IMG/VR virus record: IMGVR_UViG_2734482533_000009 | From: a virus | Lineage: Duplodnaviria; Heunggongvirae; Uroviricota; Caudoviricetes | Reading direction: 5' to 3' (one strand) | DNA length: 8,410 nucleotides | Shown: in pieces, positions 1-8,410 of the stretch | Position numbering within the stretch: the first letter of the stretch is position 1 | Layout of the letters: the number at the start of each line of letters is the position of its first letter | The notes under the pieces: generated by a model | The model's database searches: none | Told to the model about the DNA's origin: nothing | Seen by the model: only the letters and a program-made list of their open reading frames with translations | Program-made: the position numbers and the translations under genes

Positions 1-28
1 AGGGACAGCTGATAGAAACAGAAGCCAC
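1..28 (-). CDS. insA: IS1 InsA, first 9 codons only (GTG start at 26..28); remainder outside window
   Basis: Minus-strand reading from 28 gives GTG GCT TCT GTT TCT ATC AGC TGT CCC = (M)ASVSISCP, the known InsA N-terminus. Confidence 0.6.
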
Positions 29-83
29 TGGAGCACCTCAAAAACACCATCATACACTAAATCAGTAAGTTGGCAGCATCACC
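1..83 (-). mobile_element. IS1 insertion sequence, terminal 83 bp (insA-proximal end); the element continues left out of the window
   Basis: Reverse complement of 1..83 reads GGTGATGCTGCCAACTTACTGATTTAGTGTATGATGGTGTTTTTGAGGTGCTCCAGTGGCTTCTGTTTCTATCAGCTGTCCCT, which I recognise as the IS1 terminal inverted repeat and the start of insA. The match ends sharply at position 83, where the low-GC flank begins. Confidence 0.85.
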
Positions 84-402
84 AGCCTTCTTGAGGCTAC
101 CACCTGTTTTCAGGTGTCATTCAGACGTGATTTGCCCCAGATTGGGAAAGCACGCTTTTTTCTCAGCTATCGTCCTCTTATTTTGCCGTTACATTTCTTT
201 TTGCATTCTAATGATTAATTTACAATAATAATATCGGTAATTATTGAGTAATAATAAATTAATTATTGCAAATGTAATTTAATTCCATCTTCGCGTTATA
301 TTCCAATCTTTAATCTCCGCATGGAACAAGTTGCATGCGTGACTATATTAAGACGACTTATAACCACCAAAACATTTGCTTTGCAAGCAAAAACAGTGAC
401 CA

Positions 403-431
403 TTGACTCTAAGAAAATTCCGATCTATTGT
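403..431 (+). promoter_or_regulatory. Candidate sigma70 promoter: TTGACT (403..408), 17 bp spacer, TATTGT (426..431)
   Basis: Hexamers and spacing read directly from the sequence, with an A-rich stretch upstream. Predicted start is about 27 nt upstream of the ATG at 466. Sequence pattern only. Confidence 0.2.
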
Positions 432-465
432 TAGGGTCATCAAAGTTACTTAACAGTATTCCGAA

Positions 466-567
466 ATGAAAATACAAAGCAAGCTAATTGTCTTATTAAA
501 CATTATTATTGCATTTATATTATTTGAGCTTTTAGCTCAAAAATTTGGTTTGAGTACATTATTTTAA
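466..567 (+). CDS. Hypothetical 33-aa hydrophobic peptide (MKIQSKLIVLLNIIIAFILFELLAQKFGLSTLF), possible small membrane protein
   Basis: ATG at 466..468, TAA at 565..567. Basic N-terminus followed by a hydrophobic stretch long enough for one membrane helix. No convincing Shine-Dalgarno upstream and it is below the ORF-track size threshold, so coding status is uncertain. Confidence 0.2.
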   Translation: MKIQSKLIVLLNIIIAFILFELLAQKFGLSTLF

Positions 568-715
568 AGCAAGATAAACAATATCGGGCACTCTAGTTTT
601 TATAATTAACAATTAAACGTCCATAAAATGTTATTTACTTTTCTTCGCTATTGTCATATCTTAATATAGTGGCTTACGCCACTCTACTTTCATCACATTT
701 TGTACGTTTATGTAC

Positions 716-746
716 TCGCCATGAAGCTCTTTCATGGCGATTTTTT
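716..746 (+). terminator. Intrinsic terminator on the plus strand: 10-bp perfect stem (716..725 / 731..740), 5-nt loop, T6 tract (741..746)
   Basis: TCGCCATGAA-gctct-TTCATGGCGA followed by TTTTTTATT. It is oriented to stop plus-strand transcripts coming from the low-GC segment, convergent with tfa. Confidence 0.5.
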
Positions 747-832: not shown

Positions 833-1366
833 TTACCCTATAGGTGCTACTGGCCATTCAATATCCGGTGCAGTTGATGTATCAACACGGTTCAGCAACA
901 CCCGATACTTTTTCCAAGCTTCCAGCAACAAGGTTTCTTTCTCCGTTGCGATCTCCAGATCCACAGCATCCTGAAGCGGCGCTATATGCTCACTGGCTAC
1001 CTGCATCAGGCTGTTTTTTGTTTCTTCCGCCTCCCGGATCCGGAACAGTTTTTCTGCTTCCGTATCCTTCACCCAGGCTGTGCCGTTCCACTTCTGAAAC
1101 TCCCCTTCCGGGGATAACCAGGTGACATTTTCCGGTAATGAGCCGAGTTCAGAAATAAATAACGCGTCGCCGGAAGCCACGTCATAAACCGTTTTACCCC
1201 GATGATCTTCAACGAGATGCCACGATGACTCATCACTGTTGAAAACAGCCACGAAACCAGCCGGAATATCTGGCGGTGCAATATCGGTACTGTTTGCAGG
1301 CAGACCTGTATGAGGCGGAATATATGCGTCACCTTCACCAATAAATTCATTAGTTCCGGCCAGCAG
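833..1366 (-). CDS. tfa: Tail fibre assembly protein Tfa (chaperone for the side tail fibre); first ~16 codons hidden in the N-run
   Basis: Minus-strand translation from 1366 reads [75 protein letters not shown]...[12 protein letters not shown], near-identical to lambda-family Tfa as I recall it. Stop TAA at 833..835. The ORF-track entry 833..1252 is only the part after an internal GTG. Confidence 0.9.
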
Positions 1367-1692
1367 NNNNNNNNNNNNNNNNNNNNNNNNNNNNNNNNNN
1401 NNNNNNNNNNNNNNNNNNNNNNNNNNNNNNNNNNNNNNNNNNNNNNNNNNNNNNNNNNNNNNNNNNNNNNNNNNNNNNNNNNNNNNNNNNNNNNNNNNNN
1501 NNNNNNNNNNNNNNNNNNNNNNNNNNNNNNNNNNNNNNNNNNNNNNNNNNNNNNNNNNNNNNNNNNNNNNNNNNNNNNNNNNNNNNNNNNNNNNNNNNNN
1601 NNNNNNNNNNNNNNNNNNNNNNNNNNNNNNNNNNNNNNNNNNNNNNNNNNNNNNNNNNNNNNNNNNNNNNNNNNNNNNNNNNNNNNNNNNNN
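1367..1692. other. Run of 326 N (masked or unresolved sequence) covering the stf 3' end, the stf-tfa junction and the tfa start
   Basis: Contiguous n characters in the sequence. Confidence 1.
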
Positions 1693-4551
1693 GCCACTGG
1701 TTAATGAGCCACTGATACCAACCTGATTAGTCCCGCTAACTTGAGTACTCCCTGCCGGAAACATTCCAGTAGGTTGACTCCCGCTATTCGTTCTGGGCCC
1801 AGTCTGACTATGTTGGTGGGCCCCAGCTGAACTTGTAGAGCCGCTCAGACTGTGCGTATGCGCCCCGGTGTTATTCGTGGATTTAGTGCCGTAATCAAAC
1901 GACGATGTGGTTTTCGTCCCCAAATCCGTACTGGATGCGCTGGCGCTGTGGGTGTGCGATTTAATGCCATCCTGTTCCTGAGACAATACGGCACGACCAC
2001 TGGCGGGCTTGCCCTTAATCGTCCAGCCACGCATATCAGGGATCACGCCTGACGGATAAGCGGCTGCAAGTTTCGGGTAAGCAGATTTGTCAAAAGTCTG
2101 CCCCTGCATCAGGGCATAACCAGACGGAACGGTATCTGATGGCCACGGGATTGGTGCACCGACTGGATAAAACTCTGCAGGAGGATGAGCCGAGGTGTAA
2201 AGCTGCGCCCACGGCGACCAGTTTGCGTCGGTCGTATCCCGTCGTGAACGAATAAATGCCGGAGCATGAGCACCGCTTGTACCACTCCAGCCGATGAGTA
2301 ACTCACCTTCGCCAACGGCTGTCATCCCTTTCAGGTGAATGATATTTCCATACGCTGTTGGATATCCGTTGTTATACACCTCGTATAACTCAAGACCTGC
2401 TGCCCCCTGCGTATTGTCTGTCAGCGCGGCTACCCGACCTTTTGAAGCCAGATTAACTGATGATACTGCTGTTCCACCTGACGGTAGCGCCCCGATCTCT
2501 GATGCCGTTGGCTTATTTCTGGAGTTATAGTCCCTTCGCCAGCCAGGTGAATAATCTGTTCCGTGATTAATATAGGTAAACTGGGCGTTGGTTGTTCCGC
2601 CACCGCTGGATGTGGTCGGAGTGGTAATGCGGATCGTCATCGCTGACTTTATCCCCATTACTTCAATGACAGCTCCGGCGAGATGAATATTACCGCAGCC
2701 AGTATCAGTAATGATTTTATTATTGCCATAAGACCAGGAACCCTTGCACATCCAGTATGGATGGTTAAATGCTCCCTGAGAATCCAGCCACTCGATAAAC
2801 TGTGCAGTCGTCCAGTTTCCTGTTGTTGTGCTTACTGACCCACCGAAGGCACGGCAGGCACCAATATTTTTCGTAAAGGTGTCTTTGCCAGGGATATCCG
2901 CACCGTTCTGATCTTTCTGCAGACGTTTCTCAGCATTGTCATTGGCTGCTTTTACTGCCTTTGGCGTTGCCGCCAGCGTTTCAGACGTGCTGTTGGTCGC
3001 GCTGCTTAGCTGGATTATCCCTTTCTGTGCTGTCGTTGCATCCTGTGCGGTGTATTTCCCGTTAGCCAGGTCATACGCGGCCTTAACGGCTTTTGGTGTT
3101 GCCGCCAGTGACTCGGAAGTGCTGTTAGTCGCACTACTGAGCTGTACTATCCCCTTTTTCGTCGTGCTCGCATCCTCAAGCGCCACGGCGGATGCAATAT
3201 CCTCTGCCCGTTTTGCCGCTGTCTCAGCGCGCGTTGCTGCAGATTCCGCCGTACTTTTGCTCTGAGCTGCTGCCGTCGCACTACCAGCAGCCTCTGTCGC
3301 CTTCGTGGATGCCGTCGTGGCGCTGCCCTTCGCTGCTGACGCCTGTCTGGTCGCCTCATCTTTTGAAGCAGACGCCGATGATGCCGATGACGCCGCCGAA
3401 CTGGCGGACGATGCGGCAGCCGTTTTTGAGGATTCTGCACGGGTTTCCGACGCTTTCGCGTTCGTTTCGGATGTCTTCGCTGCGGAAGCTGACCTCGCTG
3501 CTGCCGTGGCCTGCTCAGTGGCTTCGCCAGCCTTCGTTGTGGCTGTTGAAGCGGATGATGCGGCGCTTTCTGCCGATTTTCCGGCGGCGGTGGCACTGGC
3601 TGAGGCCTGCCCGGCACTTGTTGACGCGGCGCTGGCAGACGACGCAGCCGCTGTTTTTGAGCCTGCCGCAGCTGAGGCACTCTGTCCCGCTGCCGTTTCA
3701 GAAGACCTGGCGTTCGTCTCGGACGTTTTGGCCGCCTTCGCAGAATTTGCAGCCGCCGTCGCCGAGGAAGCTGCGCTACTGGCGCTTGATGATGCGTTCG
3801 TTTCTGATGATTTTGCCGCCTCTTTTGAAGCCGACGCATCCCGGGCTGAGGTGGCAGCTTCTGACGCTTTCGTGGTCGCGGTGGATGCAGAAGTGGCTGC
3901 TGATTGTTGTGACGCTGCCGCATTCGTTTCTAACGTTTTCGCCGCACCGGCACTGGTAGCCGCCGCGCTTTTTGAGGACTCTGCAGCGGCAGCACTTTTT
4001 GAGGCTTCAGTGGCCTTTGTTGATGCCGTTCCTGCGCTGGAAGACGCTGACTGAGCCGACGAAGCGGCCTGTCCGGCTGACGTGCTGGCTGCACGTGCTG
4101 AATCTGCAGCATCAGTCGCATGGGTTGCCGCCTCACGGGCTGATGTGCTGGCATCGCTGGCTGATTTCTTCGCGGCTGCCGTGTTCTGTGCCACCGCGGA
4201 CGCGTTACGCGCCACCTCTTCCACCATCAGCTCAAAACGGCGCAGTGCCTCCGGACGGGCATCATCCTCCGTCATGGCACCGAGAAAATCATTCAGCGTA
4301 CCGGGTCGGGAATCTTCATACACGGTGATGGTCCCGGCATGTGACGGCGGGAATCCTTCCACCAACAGAATAACGCTGTACTGACCGTACTCAACGTCCA
4401 TGCTGTAACGCCCGGCTTCATCCGGATTTTCTGAGGCCAGCGTGTTCACCACCACCGTGGTGCTGTTACGTTTTGCTTTCAGCTGGATTGTGCAGTTCTG
4501 TACCGGTTTTCCTGTGCCGTCTTTCAGTACACCTGAAATCTTTACTGCCAT
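1693..4551 (-). CDS. stf: Side tail fibre protein, lambda Stf-like; 3' end and stop codon lost in the N-run
   Basis: N-terminus [26 protein letters not shown]... matches the lambda Stf N-terminus. It is followed by a long Ala/Ser/Thr-rich shaft, two copies of the phage tail-fibre repeat (KGI[VI][22 protein letters not shown]), a central Cys-containing domain, and a C-terminal region ([30 protein letters not shown]...SHTHSASA...GAHTHSLSG...GAHQH) matching the Stf distal domain. ATG at 4549..4551 preferred over the in-frame GTG at 4555..4557 used by the ORF track. The ORF-track span 1069..4557 is an artefact of reading through the N-run into tfa out of frame. Confidence 0.9.
2938..3165 (-). repeat. 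Two copies of a ~96-nt tail-fibre repeat unit (2938..3036 and 3070..3165) within stf
   Basis: Protein repeats [32 protein letters not shown] and [33 protein letters not shown]. The DNA is visibly repeated (GGCTTTTGGTGTTGCCGCCAG... versus GCCTTTGGCGTTGCCGCCAG...). Confidence 0.7.
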
Positions 4552-4560
4552 ATTCACCCC

Positions 4561-4589
4561 ACAAAAAAGCCCGCCTGAACCGGCGGGCT
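4561..4589 (-). terminator. Intrinsic terminator downstream of lom: 8-bp GC stem (4568..4575 / 4582..4589), then a T6 tract on the minus strand
   Basis: Minus strand reads AGCCCGCC-ggttca-GGCGGGCT-TTTTTTGTGGGGTGAAT-ATG. The T-tract runs into the stf ribosome-binding region 10 nt before the stf start. Confidence 0.6.
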
Positions 4590-4615
4590 GTCATAACACT
4601 GTGTTACCTGGCTAA

Positions 4616-5132
4616 TCAGAATTTATAACCGACACCCACGATGAAACCGTCAGTGCGCCAGAGACGTGTTGCTGTGGCGACCGTCATCACTTCCGGTCAG
4701 CACGTCGTGCGTTTTCCCCTTGTTGTCAGTTACGCGGAGATAATCCCCGGAGAAAGTCGACACACGGCTGTAAGCCACACCCGCCATCGCATACGCGCTG
4801 AACCATTCATTCACGCGCACAGACGGCCCCGCCATCACGCTGAACCAGCGGTTACGCACGGAATCTTCATGCCAGCGGGTATCGCTGTAACGGGTCAGCT
4901 GGCGATTCTTGTCTCCTGCATAGCTGAATGACGTCACCAGCCCCAGCGTATCCGTAAACTCATAACGGTATTTCACGTTAATCCCGTTCAGATCATCACT
5001 GCCGGGAACGTTGGTCCGGGCATGAAGATACCCCGCGCTCAGCGTGGACTGATGTTCAGACGCCCATGCAGGCGCACCGGATACGGCCAGGCAAATGGCT
5101 GCGGACAAAATGGCTGCACAAACTTTACGCAT
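4616..5132 (-). pseudogene. lom: Lom/Ail/PagC-family outer-membrane protein gene with a frameshift near the 3' end (intact ORF 4650..5132; conserved C-terminus WRTDGFIVGVGYKF* encoded out of frame at 4616..4660)
   Basis: ATG at 5130..5132 preceded by GAGAGGT 5 nt upstream. Signal peptide MRKVCAAILSAAICLAVSGAPAWA, then the family motifs GINVKYRYE and SAYAMAGVA. The main frame ends ...GRHSNTSLAH* at 4650..4652, while the family's C-terminal beta-strand ending in Phe is in another frame and stops at 4616..4618. This could be a true pseudogene or a sequence error. Confidence 0.75.
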
Positions 5133-5151: not shown

Positions 5152-5178
5152 GCAATAAAAAAGGCGTCATTCCTGACG
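5152..5178 (-). terminator. Intrinsic terminator hairpin between J and lom (stem 5161..5167 / 5172..5178, T-tract on the minus strand at 5152..5160)
   Basis: Minus strand reads GGCGTCA-ggaa-TGACGCC followed by TTTTTTATT. The plus strand also has T-rich sequence after the stem, so it may act in both directions. Confidence 0.55.
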
Positions 5179-5202
5179 CCATTTATTGGGGTTATAAATA
5201 TT

Positions 5203-8200
5203 TCAACGAATACTGATGCCGGAAGCCGCTTTTTTGGTCACAATCACCGTACAGTCGGTGATATTGCCTGCCCCCTGATTGCCTTTCTGGAAAATCTTAA
5301 ACTCCAGAGTGACGCTACCACCACCACTAGGCATATCAATAACTGCACTGTAACTACCGGGAATGGCACCTTTAGTTTCTCTGGATGCGATTAATACGCC
5401 GTTTTTGCGAACTTCAAAACCATAACCCGTGTATCGCGTGCCTCCTGGGTTATTTCCGCTCCCCGGATCGTCATACGCTATACCGTTAAAAATAATGGGC
5501 GGAATAATAATCTGGCGGTCAAAGTTATGATCATCGCTTATGGTGACTGTAACCGTCCCGTTTGGTGTTTCCGTGTTACCCCACGTACCAGCCTGTTTCG
5601 GAAATGATTTGGATACAGCTTTAACGAAGTCACCTCTGACCTGAGTCGCCTCCAGCATGCCCTTAATCGTACAGTTTTCATTTACCGTGACATTGTTGAG
5701 CGTCCCGGCGTTCGCATTCACACTGCCACTGATATCCGCATTTTTAGCGGTCAGCTTTCCGTCCGGAGTCAGGGAAAATGCCGATGGATTTCCACCGCTG
5801 GTAATGGTGGGGGCCGTCAGGCGTTTCAGGAACACGTCGTTCATGAATATCTGATCGCCCTGACCAACAAACATCGGTTTTGTGTTGCCATTCGCAGGAT
5901 TAACCATCGCAATCCTGTCCGCCGCCAGCAGCACCTGACTCTGCATGCCGTCAGGGGTGTTCTCAATACCGGCACCAATACCCGCGATATAAAGGCGTCC
6001 GTCCTGCATCTGCTGCAGCTTCACAGCCCACATGCTGTTCAGGTTATTATTTGTATCAACCTGAACCTTCTGTATCTGCTGAATTGCCGCACTCTGGTCT
6101 TCCAGTTTCTTATTGACGGTCTGCGTGATTTCATTGCTGACATCCGTAATGGACGTCCTGATTTCAGCCAGGTCAGGCGCAAGCTGACCGTTATCAATCT
6201 GCGTCCACAGCTCCTGAGCCAGATGGGTTTTCCCTATCTCGCCTTTGAAAAAATCCAGATAACCGGATGCATCATCACTCGGCTGACCAACAGCCTCCAC
6301 GAATGCCGATTTGCCAACGGTGTTCACACTGCGGATATAAAAGTAATAATCATGGCCCGGTTTGATATTGATACTGGCGGCTATCCAGTACAGCGCCGTG
6401 CCAAGATAGCGTGCTGTGGTTTCAACCTGCCTGATATCCGCAATCCGCTTTTCCGAGAACCAGAACTCAAACTGTACCGTCGGATCATAAACCGCAAGAT
6501 GCGGCGTGGCGGTTATCTGAAAATAGCCCGGCGTCAGCTCAATCCGCGACAGCGCTGCCGGTGCGGCAATCCGGAACGATACCGACGCCGGATCGCCCTG
6601 CTGCCCCCACGCATTTACTGCCCGGACTGTCAGCCTGTAGTTCCCCAGCGCCAGTTGTGTGAAGCGGTAAGTGGTTTCCGTCGTCCGGGCCGTGCTGACC
6701 AGCCGCTCACTGCCGTCATCCGCTGTTACGGTCAGACGGAGCAGGAAGCTCACGCCCTTCACCACCTTCGGCGTGTCCCAGCGCGCCAGCACCTGATATT
6801 CCCCGCTGTCTGCGGTGACTTCGGCAGTCAGGTGCTGCACCGCTGGCGGCGTGACACCATTCACCGTGCCGCTCTGGTCGCCGTCAAAGTGCGCCCCGTT
6901 ATCCACGATGGCTTCTTTTTCCGGCACATGCTGCACGGCGGTGATGGCATACGTGCCGTCGTCGTTCTCACGGATACTCACGCAGCGGAACAATCGCTGG
7001 TGCAGCGTCGGCAGCTTCAGCCCCCACACGCTGTATTCAGCAACACCGTCAGGAACACGGCTCACTTTTACCTTCACGCCGTCGGTGACGGACTGGACCT
7101 CCACGCTGACCGGATTCCCCTGCCCGTCAACCAGGCTTATCAGCGTGGTGCCGGAGGATGGCAGCGTGATTTCACGGTCGAGCGTCAGCGTCCGGGTCTG
7201 GCTGTTCACCGCCAGCACGCGCCCGCCGGTGCGGATACCGGCATAGTCATCATCGCAGATTTCAATGACATCGCCCGGTACATGACGAAGCCCTTCAGCA
7301 CCCACGCTGAAATCCACGGTCTGCGTCTCCAGCAGTTCCGTTTTAATCAGCCACAGCCCGGCGCGGTGTGCCTGCCNNNNNNNNNNNNNNNNNNNNNNNN
7401 NNNNNNNNNNNNNNNNNNNNNNNNNNNNNNNNNNNNNNNNNNNNNNNNNNNNNNNNNNNNNNNNNNNNNNNNNNNNNNNNNNNNNNNNNNNNNNNNNNNN
7501 NNNNNNNNNNNNNNNNNNNNNNNNNNNNNNNNNNNNNNNNNNNNNNNNNNNNNNNNNNNNNNNNNNNNNNNNNNNNNNNNNNNNNNNNNNNNNNNNNNNN
7601 NNNNNNNNNNNNNNNNNNNNNNNNNNACAGCGCATCGCCGAGCAGAAATCACTGAGCACATCCCACGCCTTGCGCTGTGTGGTCAGCCAGGCATTACAGG
7701 TGATGCGCGGCTCCGTGCTGCCAAAGCCGTCCGGCACCGACTGGTCACAGTACTGGCCGATGACATACAGCGCCCATTTATCCACATCTGCCGCACCAAG
7801 ACGTTTCCCCATGCCATAGCGCGGATGGGTCAGCATATCCCACAGACACCAGGCCATGTTGTTGCTGTATGCCGGTTTTAACGTTCCGTCCCAGATACCG
7901 CTGTATTGCCGCGTCTGCGGATTATAGTTCGACGGCACCTGCAGAATGCGCCCGCGAAGATGATAATTACGGCTCACCTGCTGGCTGCCGAACTGCTCCG
8001 AATCCACCTGTACGCCGACCAGTGCCGTGTTCGGGTAGCACTGTTTCACATCGATGATTTCGGTGTATGACGACCAGAGCGTTTTGTTCTGCAGCTGGTC
8101 TGTGGTGCTGTCCGGCGTCATTCTGCGCATCCGGATATTAAACGGGCGCGGCGGCAGGTTATCCACCACCACCGAGGCCAGATACTGCGAGGTGGTTTTG

Positions 8201-8410
8201 CCCTTAATGGTGATGTCTTTTTCCGTCACCCAGCCACCGTTACGCTGTATCTGAACCAGCAGGCGAACTTCAGACGGATTCCTGTCTCCCTTTGAGGTGG
8301 TTTCCACCAGTGCCTGTACACCGAAGGTAAAACGCAGTCGGTCAATGTTTGCCGACGTGATGGTCCGGGTGATCGGCGTGTCATATTTCACTTCCGTACC
8401 CAGCACCGTC
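5203..8410 (-). CDS. J: Tail tip host-specificity protein J (central tail fibre), C-terminal ~1067 codons; N-terminus outside the window; interrupted by an in-frame N-run
   Basis: Long stretches match lambda gpJ as I recall it (e.g. [99 protein letters not shown]). Stop TGA at 5203..5205. The frame is continuous across the N-run. Confidence 0.95.
7377..7626. other. Run of 250 N inside J; reading frame is preserved across it
   Basis: Contiguous n characters. J codon boundaries fall at 7627 and the frame resumes correctly at 7372..7376 (X then QAHRAG), so the Ns replace real sequence of equal length. Confidence 1.

Follow-up and report, generated by a model that had tools for sequence, protein, structure and literature searches.

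A predicted YncL-like membrane protein gene with a conserved 3' end in a cassette of lambda-like prophages

YncL is a 31-amino-acid stress-response protein of the Escherichia coli inner membrane (b4598 in K-12), induced by heat, minimal medium and stationary phase (PMC12542507). Its production causes a sublethal membrane depolarisation, together with a phage-shock response, nucleoid condensation and a greater sensitivity to magainin-2, and its early production from a plasmid depolarises the membrane and lowers viability (PMC12542507). YncL is cleaved by RseP in vivo (PMC10470546). In Salmonella, the expression of yncL requires sigmaS, and the transcript was first catalogued as a small RNA (sRNA) named STnc1110 (PMC5437024), while KilS, an sRNA derived from the Rac prophage, has been reported to contact the yncL messenger RNA (mRNA) (PMC8175672). 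Here we describe a cassette that would carry a diverged relative of this gene in lambda-like prophages, found in a stretch of 8,410 nucleotides of a Caudoviricetes virus (IMG/VR record IMGVR_UViG_2734482533_000009), to which we refer as the window. An earlier reading of the letters alone, the original prediction, had described at positions 403-746 a compact unit formed by a promoter, a hydrophobic open reading frame (ORF) of 33 codons and a terminator, which might encode either a small membrane peptide, such as a toxin-like or lysogenic-conversion factor, or a non-coding RNA.

The 33-codon reading frame and the YncL family

Judged by its sequence, the gene of this cassette, which is unannotated and carried by phages, appears to be a new member of the YncL family of small membrane proteins, and its product would be a diverged prophage-borne paralogue of YncL, not an ortholog. 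The gene is placed as follows:

466-567, plus strand: yncL-like gene with an ATG start, encoding 33 amino acids, a predicted single-pass small membrane protein, without a Shine-Dalgarno sequence

The product is MKIQSKLIVLLNIIIAFILFELLAQKFGLSTLF, and an in-frame TAA at 451-453 limits the ORF upstream. The grand average of hydropathy (GRAVY) of the peptide is 1.5 overall, with a mean Kyte-Doolittle value of 2.9 for residues 7-24, and the hydrophobic 33-codon ORF was found exactly where the original prediction had placed it.

The frame is intact in all 39 unique copies from IMG/VR and RefSeq, and it is kept in 82 of the 83 full-length E. coli-type units gathered from RefSeq, IMG/VR and metagenomes. 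Only four variants of the peptide exist among them, with conservative changes in all cases except E21K and A24D. By the Nei-Gojobori method, the comparison with L004, which has diverged furthest among the E. coli lineages (76% identity across the cassette), counts 11 synonymous and 7 non-synonymous changes and gives a ratio between the proportions of non-synonymous and synonymous differences (pN/pS) of 0.16 (Fisher p<1e-4). The comparison with the lineage L005, where 5 changes are synonymous and 1 is non-synonymous, gives 0.05 (p=0.001), and this ORF has the best pN/pS among the six frames. In L004, a 5-bp deletion right after the last sense codon restores the stop at the same codon position. 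The five other ORFs of the cassette were rejected as alternative genes, since each of them contains a stop or a frameshift or has lost its start in at least one variant; this includes the 37-amino-acid 'hypothetical protein' annotated in phage PhiR70_1. The ORF at 466-567 is under purifying selection. The preservation of the frame in homologues had been proposed along with the original prediction as a check on the ORF, and this check, with a pN/pS far below 1, speaks for a gene.

The second line of evidence is the similarity to the YncL family. In NCBIfam, YncL (NF000537) is the only match at E<=10 for both variants searched (E=1.3e-5 and 3.7e-5). A hidden Markov model (HMM) that we built from 18 diverse family members, leaving the query out, scores the three prophage variants at 31.1, 33.4 and 27.4 bits, the best of 5000 composition-preserving shuffles reaching 13.9 bits, and no other six-frame ORF of the window matches this model. 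BLASTP aligns the peptide to K-12 YncL (MNVSSRTVVLINFFAAVGLFTLISMRFGWFI) with 39% identity over 28 amino acids, without gaps. The residues that are invariant in the family (M1, L10, N12, A16, L19, L22, F27 and G28) are all present and kept in the four peptide variants, as are, in the peptide, the basic residues typical of the family at positions 6 and 26, the intramembrane Asn12 and the K/R-F-G motif. In addition, the precomputed Pfam assignment PF28073.1 is found on an identical database protein (P0001) and on all 75 YncL proteins, and a profile search of 1.84 billion representatives retrieved a wider family of 30-31-amino-acid proteins. Searches of other kinds gave nothing further: PHROGs holds no match for the peptide, a literature search with the peptide string returned nothing, and tblastn of the peptide against phages missed it, although its DNA occurs in three of those phages.

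Both proteins are similar in length and share a short basic N-terminus, a single hydrophobic helix with Asn12, and the K/R-F-G motif near the C-terminus. They differ in the N-terminus itself, MKIQSK in the prophage peptide and MNVSS(R/K) in YncL, and in the C-terminus, which is two amino acids longer in the prophage peptide (GLSTLF). The location is also different, since yncL lies between patD and ortT in the K-12 chromosome (patD-yncL-ortT) and the cassette gene lies at a prophage site next to the tail fibre assembly gene tfa. Finally, K-12 yncL has a GGUGG ribosome-binding sequence and a hairpin about 20 nucleotides past the stop, whereas the prophage gene has no Shine-Dalgarno sequence and a structured 3' untranslated region (UTR) of 148 nucleotides.

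Several points weigh against this assignment. There is no Shine-Dalgarno sequence in the 20 nucleotides before the ATG at 466, whereas K-12 yncL carries GGUGG; the original prediction had raised this absence, and it is a real argument versus coding, outweighed here by the coding evidence. In one metagenome contig, the sole exception of the 83, the ATG has changed to ATA. The NCBIfam scores of 25.0 and 23.5 bits stay below the curated equivalog cut-off of 35 bits, and therefore the peptide would be a paralogue or family member and not a YncL equivalog; this low score also likely explains the absence of annotation, given that the ORF is annotated in none of the roughly 200 RefSeq matches listed. 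A rerun of Pfam gave no match for the peptide, nor for K-12 YncL itself, and the PF28073 assignment was not reproduced. The hexamer match of the promoter is, on its own, at chance level. The physiological role suggested below is extrapolated from the induced plasmid expression of a 39%-identical paralogue. The last of these points comes from E. albertii, where the frame has been lost.

The E. albertii-type copies were retrieved with an 18-mer taken from the 3' stretch of the cassette, which found this species plus chance matches among the species representatives, where a 22-mer scan had given 0 matches. This sample comprises only three close relatives and is biased towards the 3' region: the type strain NBRC 107761 (L110, 1480-1870) and two metagenome contigs of the same type (L085 and L090). 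In L110 and L085, the copy lies between uspF and ttcA, which is the Rac attachment locus. The stretch equivalent to the ORF lacks both a homologous start codon and a stop, has lost 11 nucleotides and contains an A-run whose length varies, and it concentrates about 8-10 of the approximately 12 differences among the three copies; the promoter, the 3' hairpins and the terminator are kept. A mechanical ORF of 113-125 amino acids reads through the terminator in these copies. The original prediction had named broken frames within conserved surroundings as the mark of a non-coding element or a decayed remnant; this pattern is seen in one E. albertii prophage remnant, and not in E. coli. We read it as the peptide gene having decayed within a prophage remnant. 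As a hypothesis, it also hints at a role of its own for the 3' end, and it would point to an extra RNA-level role rather than against coding in E. coli.

A further alternative is that the unit is a non-coding remnant or a purely non-coding sRNA, with an ORF that is incidental in AT-rich DNA. The missing Shine-Dalgarno sequence, the loss of the frame in the E. albertii-type copies, the ATA start codon in one copy and the lack of annotation among the RefSeq matches listed would all agree with it. We nevertheless consider it highly improbable, because a pN/pS of 0.05-0.16 is specific to the ORF frame, the frame is intact in 82 of 83 copies, the YncL homology lies far above the shuffle controls, and the other ORFs in the same DNA decay. 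Between the two products that had been proposed at the outset, frame, pN/pS and homology thus favour the small membrane peptide over the non-coding RNA. We conclude that the ORF is most probably a translated gene of the YncL family, where translation would proceed without a Shine-Dalgarno sequence and the product is predicted to insert in the membrane.

Promoter, terminator and the 3' untranslated region

The elements around the gene that make up the rest of the unit are the following:

300-345, no strand assigned: conserved island ahead of the promoter, with 90-93% identity in a copy whose overall identity is 76%; its sequence includes GCATGGAACAAGTTGCATGC
403-431, plus strand: TTGACT-17-TATTGT, a putative promoter of the sigma70/sigmaS type in which TC immediately precedes the -10 element; predicted start near 438
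568-654, plus strand: proximal 3'UTR, poorly conserved, 65% identical in L004 and with indels, the least conserved part
655-715, plus strand: distal 3'UTR, conserved, with hairpin A (668-683), a single-stranded stretch (684-701) and the weak hairpin B (702-715)
716-746, plus strand: intrinsic terminator with a 10-bp stem, a 5-nucleotide loop and U6 (stem 716-740, T6 741-746)

The promoter matches 9 of the 12 consensus positions, and the scan that finds it yields 7 such sites in the window, compared with 6.6 +/- 3.0 in shuffles; the match alone is not above chance. Its position and strand were as originally predicted, whereas the label 'near-consensus' was an overstatement. What raises its credibility is not the consensus match but the conservation of hexamers and spacing across diverged lineages: four of them retain the two hexamers and the distance of 17 bp between them, namely the window, L004 (TATCGT), L005 (TTAACT) and E. 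albertii (TTGAAT-17-TATCGT). The E. albertii promoter is 79% identical over 29 bp, between flanks of 38-45%. A TC context at the -10 element is often found at sigmaS promoters, and the same context is present in the cassette. Transcription would start near 438, as judged from the position of these hexamers. The island at 300-345 may be regulatory; each ORF overlapping it is disrupted among the variants, and none is preserved.

At the other end, the strong plus-strand terminator of the original prediction was recovered as described, with 11 stem pairs by scan and 10 by RNAfold, and a free energy of -14.4 kcal/mol that places it among the two strongest of the window. The nine inner pairs of its stem are invariant in seven lineage representatives, the changes being confined to the loop, and no U-tract follows the hairpin on the reverse strand. 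Between the stop codon and the terminator stem there are 148 nucleotides. A gap of about 150 nucleotides had been held against a coding role; it is indeed there, itself conserved and structured, and it does not outweigh the coding evidence.

The last 90 nucleotides or so of the unit (655-746) are the best-conserved part of the cassette, with 90% identity in L004 compared with 80% for the ORF. The distal 3'UTR folds with a z-score of -6.5; hairpin A has a free energy of -8.4 kcal/mol and hairpin B of -1.8 kcal/mol, and the unpaired positions 684-701 read UCUACUUUCAUCACAUUUU. Positions 683-695 are invariant in L004 and L005, whose copies were retrieved without using that stretch. Substitutions avoid the stems: in L004 they fall on none of 36 stem positions versus 9 of 56 others (p=0.011), and in E. 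albertii, once the search word is excluded, on 1 of 31 stem positions versus 19 of 43 others (p=5e-5). The sole two stem changes are one-sided (C-G to U-G and A-U to G-U) and keep the pairing only in the plus-strand RNA. No compensatory double substitutions were found in the 3' stems, and for this reason the structure is backed only by the avoidance of stems and by these two wobbles. The terminator and the 3' hairpins are conserved and strand-specific.

This conservation raises the possibility of a dual-function RNA, in which the transcript would serve as the mRNA of the peptide and also leave a stable 3' fragment of about 80-90 nucleotides, acting as an Hfq-type sRNA or as another RNA-level element. 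Such a function would add to the YncL-like gene rather than exclude it. In its favour, the 3' end is better conserved than both the ORF and the proximal 3'UTR in L004 (90% versus 80% and 65%), it folds more stably than expected with stems that are avoided by substitutions and wobbles that pair only on the plus strand, and the E. albertii-type copies have lost the ORF while keeping the promoter (79%), the hairpins and the terminator. There is also the precedent of Salmonella yncL, first listed as the sRNA STnc1110 (PMC5437024). However, the same conservation of stems would also be expected of a plain terminator preceded by a stabilising hairpin, and the E. albertii copies, three close relatives, were retrieved by an 18-mer within this very region. 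Neither compensatory double changes nor a conserved internal promoter before hairpin A, as a separate 3' sRNA would have, were found; Rfam, searched permissively on 1-1400 and at gathering thresholds on the whole window, matched only IS009, within tfa. Between the 3' region and the translation start of its own mRNA, the pairing is no better than expected by chance (it is equalled in 85 of 500 shuffles), and no target was identified. We therefore hold this dual-function explanation to be possible but rather unlikely, and an additional RNA function of the 3' end to be doubtful to a similar degree. A bifunctional cassette in the fuller sense, with a peptide plus a regulatory RNA that outlived the peptide in the domesticated Rac-locus remnant of E. 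albertii, would be unlikely as well.

The YncL-like peptide could also be the toxin of a type I toxin-antitoxin system, in which a hydrophobic membrane toxin is held in check by an antisense RNA encoded in cis or in trans. The peptide is small and hydrophobic, its mRNA would have no Shine-Dalgarno sequence and a long structured UTR, and YncL lowers membrane potential and viability when made early from a plasmid (PMC12542507). One promoter-like site on the minus strand (657-628) even lies antisense to the ORF; it is, however, not kept in L004 or E. albertii, and no minus-strand terminator follows it. Moreover, no type I toxin model matched the peptide, to which NCBIfam assigns YncL only, a hok-like pairing between the 5' and 3' ends was not found above shuffles, and YncL has no known antitoxin. 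The cassette shows none of the defining type I features tested, and this alternative appears quite improbable. The label 'toxin-like' is still reasonable for the peptide, by analogy with YncL.

Taking the YncL-like gene as the preferred reading, the unit would work as follows. A moron-type cassette (about 255-746) at the tail-fibre end of lambda-like prophages would be transcribed, in the direction opposite to the phage late operon, from the promoter at 403-431 to the terminator at 716-746, giving a monocistronic mRNA of about 310 nucleotides for a 33-amino-acid single-pass inner-membrane protein, the diverged paralogue of the chromosomal YncL. This peptide would insert in the cytoplasmic membrane of the lysogen, where, by analogy with YncL, membrane potential and metabolic activity would fall in a dose-dependent manner; the peptide would then act in lysogenic conversion or in stress physiology. 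The transcript might be protected or processed by means of the conserved hairpins that close the 3'UTR. In this scheme, the use of the promoter, translation, membrane insertion and the physiological effect are inferred.

The cassette and its genomic context

The window covers the tail-fibre end of a lambda-like prophage and reads, rightwards, IS1 end, AT-rich spacer, and then, on the minus strand, tfa, stf, lom and J. The cassette and its two neighbours are delimited as follows:

255-746, plus strand: conserved cassette, with a left boundary at 255-283 depending on the lineage and a right mosaic breakpoint just past the terminator
833-1414, minus strand: tfa (tail fibre assembly) gene, convergent neighbour, from the RefSeq annotation of the identical locus (PHROG 105, E=7e-70), partly N-masked from 1368
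1-82, minus strand: end of an IS1 element inserted in the AT-rich spacer between an AraC-family regulator gene (beyond the window) and the cassette

As originally described, the unit lies in a low-G+C segment downstream of tfa (27-34% G+C versus 45-52% in tfa) and is convergent with the phage late genes, tfa running towards it. The left edge of the cassette is based on the BLAST coverage classes, which start at query position 173 or 205, together with the alignment. On the right, the IMG/VR copy L041 has an identity profile of the L005 type to the left of about 746 and of the L004 type to the right. This mosaic, plus the differing left flanks, indicates that the unit can be exchanged as a cassette, the joints being located at its two ends.

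Of 5426 complete E. coli genomes, 828 (about 15%) carry the stretch 395-760, which is found at 942 places, all of them chromosomal. The cassette always adjoins tfa, with a left-hand sequence that differs at each site, and the prophage sites where it is found include bio (the lambda attachment site), ydfJ (Qin), the icd/sit locus and argW. In the RefSeq genomes, the identical locus lies at the lambda attachment site beside the bio operon, with the AraC-family regulator gene beyond IS1; in two of these loci (L001 and L002), the IS1A transposase is annotated immediately to the left of the match. The cassette is also present in phages mEp332, PhiR70_1 and ev099, where the sole annotated feature is the 37-amino-acid ORF in another frame. 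Three independent word searches of IMG/VR, with the 3' stretch, the terminator and the ORF, recovered the same set of approximately 49 loci, with the single exception of one where IS1 is inserted just ahead of the terminator, and a looser terminator pattern found no further lineages in IMG/VR. The E2348/69 prophage PP6 is an example of a prophage without the cassette.

Several observations concern the surroundings of the cassette. In the sit-linked L004 lineage (4892-4991 and 5596-5754; also L062-L064), fragments annotated as tail fibre assembly protein flank the cassette on both sides, an arrangement suggesting that tfa 3' ends have recombined with each other; still further to the left come a Bcr/CflA efflux gene and sitABCD. 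IS1 has struck the AT-rich region three independent times at different points: in the window, where it ends at 82/83; in L006 (about 4243-5000), where it ends at the equivalent of window position 207; and in L060 (about 12586-13090), where it ends at about window position 712 and the ORF is removed. In the phages without IS1 the spacer is uninterrupted, and the AraC-family regulator gene (L007, 1017-1760; L008, 1001-1753; L009, 2330-3073) lies about 0.9 kb to the left of the cassette, divergent from it and separated by this long AT-rich spacer. The 85 bp to the right of IS1 (window 84-168) are matched at 93-100% in most of about 1,000 further E. coli genomes that have no cassette, and their counterpart is annotated as 'capsid protein' in some O157, O26 and other prophages.

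Within tfa, the Rfam family IS009 matches over its full length (218 bits; 873-1071, minus strand), wholly inside the coding sequence, and this 'sRNA' family may just model conserved tfa coding DNA. An N run from 1368 to about 1700 hides the junction between tfa and the C-terminal part of stf. Further into the late tail-gene block there are two strong terminator-like hairpins, at 4568-4589 (minus strand) and 5163-5180 (both strands). One of the two precedes the opening GTG of the stf ORF by about 10 nucleotides; the second, a two-way hairpin, lies between the long minus-strand ORFs 4650-5132 and 5203-8406.

Small membrane proteins routinely escape annotation, and the cassette gene, found in about one in seven complete E. 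coli genomes, is unannotated in the matches listed. Its carriers include avian, porcine and human isolates. With this gene, phages would have acquired a paralogue of YncL, a stress peptide of the host that reduces membrane potential and metabolic activity when it is produced. By analogy, this suggests that lysogens could differ in their tolerance of stress, in how sensitive they are to antimicrobial peptides, or in persistence. In addition, the 3'UTR, with its unusual conservation, offers a specific candidate for a new RNA element carried by prophages.

Comparison with known systems

Besides YncL itself, the cassette can be compared with four kinds of described systems. The transcript of Salmonella yncL, STnc1110, is alike in its ambiguity: it is also a short transcript with a terminator that can be taken for an sRNA or for the mRNA of a small protein, with the difference that no similarity in sequence or structure between both is detectable with Rfam.

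Type I toxins such as Hok, Ldr, Ibs, ShoB, ZorO and TisB resemble the cassette product as small hydrophobic membrane peptides whose ribosome-binding site is poorly accessible or absent. The cassette differs from them in having no match to their families, no conserved antisense gene and no long-range pairing between its 5' and 3' ends.

The sRNAs derived from 3'UTRs that act with Hfq (CpxQ, SdhX) and the prophage sRNA PasB share with the cassette a conserved 3' end, in which a hairpin and an unpaired stretch are followed by a terminator carrying a U-tract. The sequence feature of the Hfq-type 3'UTR sRNAs is present here in the form of U6 after a 10-bp stem, preceded by the conserved unpaired stretch. 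The prophage type is the same as that of the carriers of PasB and IS009 (bioRxiv 10.64898/2026.05.13.724894), and this reported association raised PasB as a candidate identity for the 3' end. It was rejected: the complement of the PasB probe has 0 matches in the window at up to 3 mismatches, and PasB maps in E2348/69 between a tail assembly gene and J, which differs from the cassette locus.

The lambda morons bor and lom, units made of promoter, gene and terminator, offer the last comparison. Classical moron proteins are far larger than 33 amino acids, and the product of the cassette, with 33, is different in this respect, as is its promoter, which is predicted. The likeness lies in an autonomous unit of deviant G+C, patchy presence (15% of genomes) and mosaic breakpoints (255-283 and about 746), located at the end of the late operon. 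With regard to a promoter and terminator of its own, the cassette has a strong and conserved terminator, together with a conserved promoter that is predicted from its consensus match. On the features tested, and with its promoter as predicted, the cassette would thus fit the moron concept.

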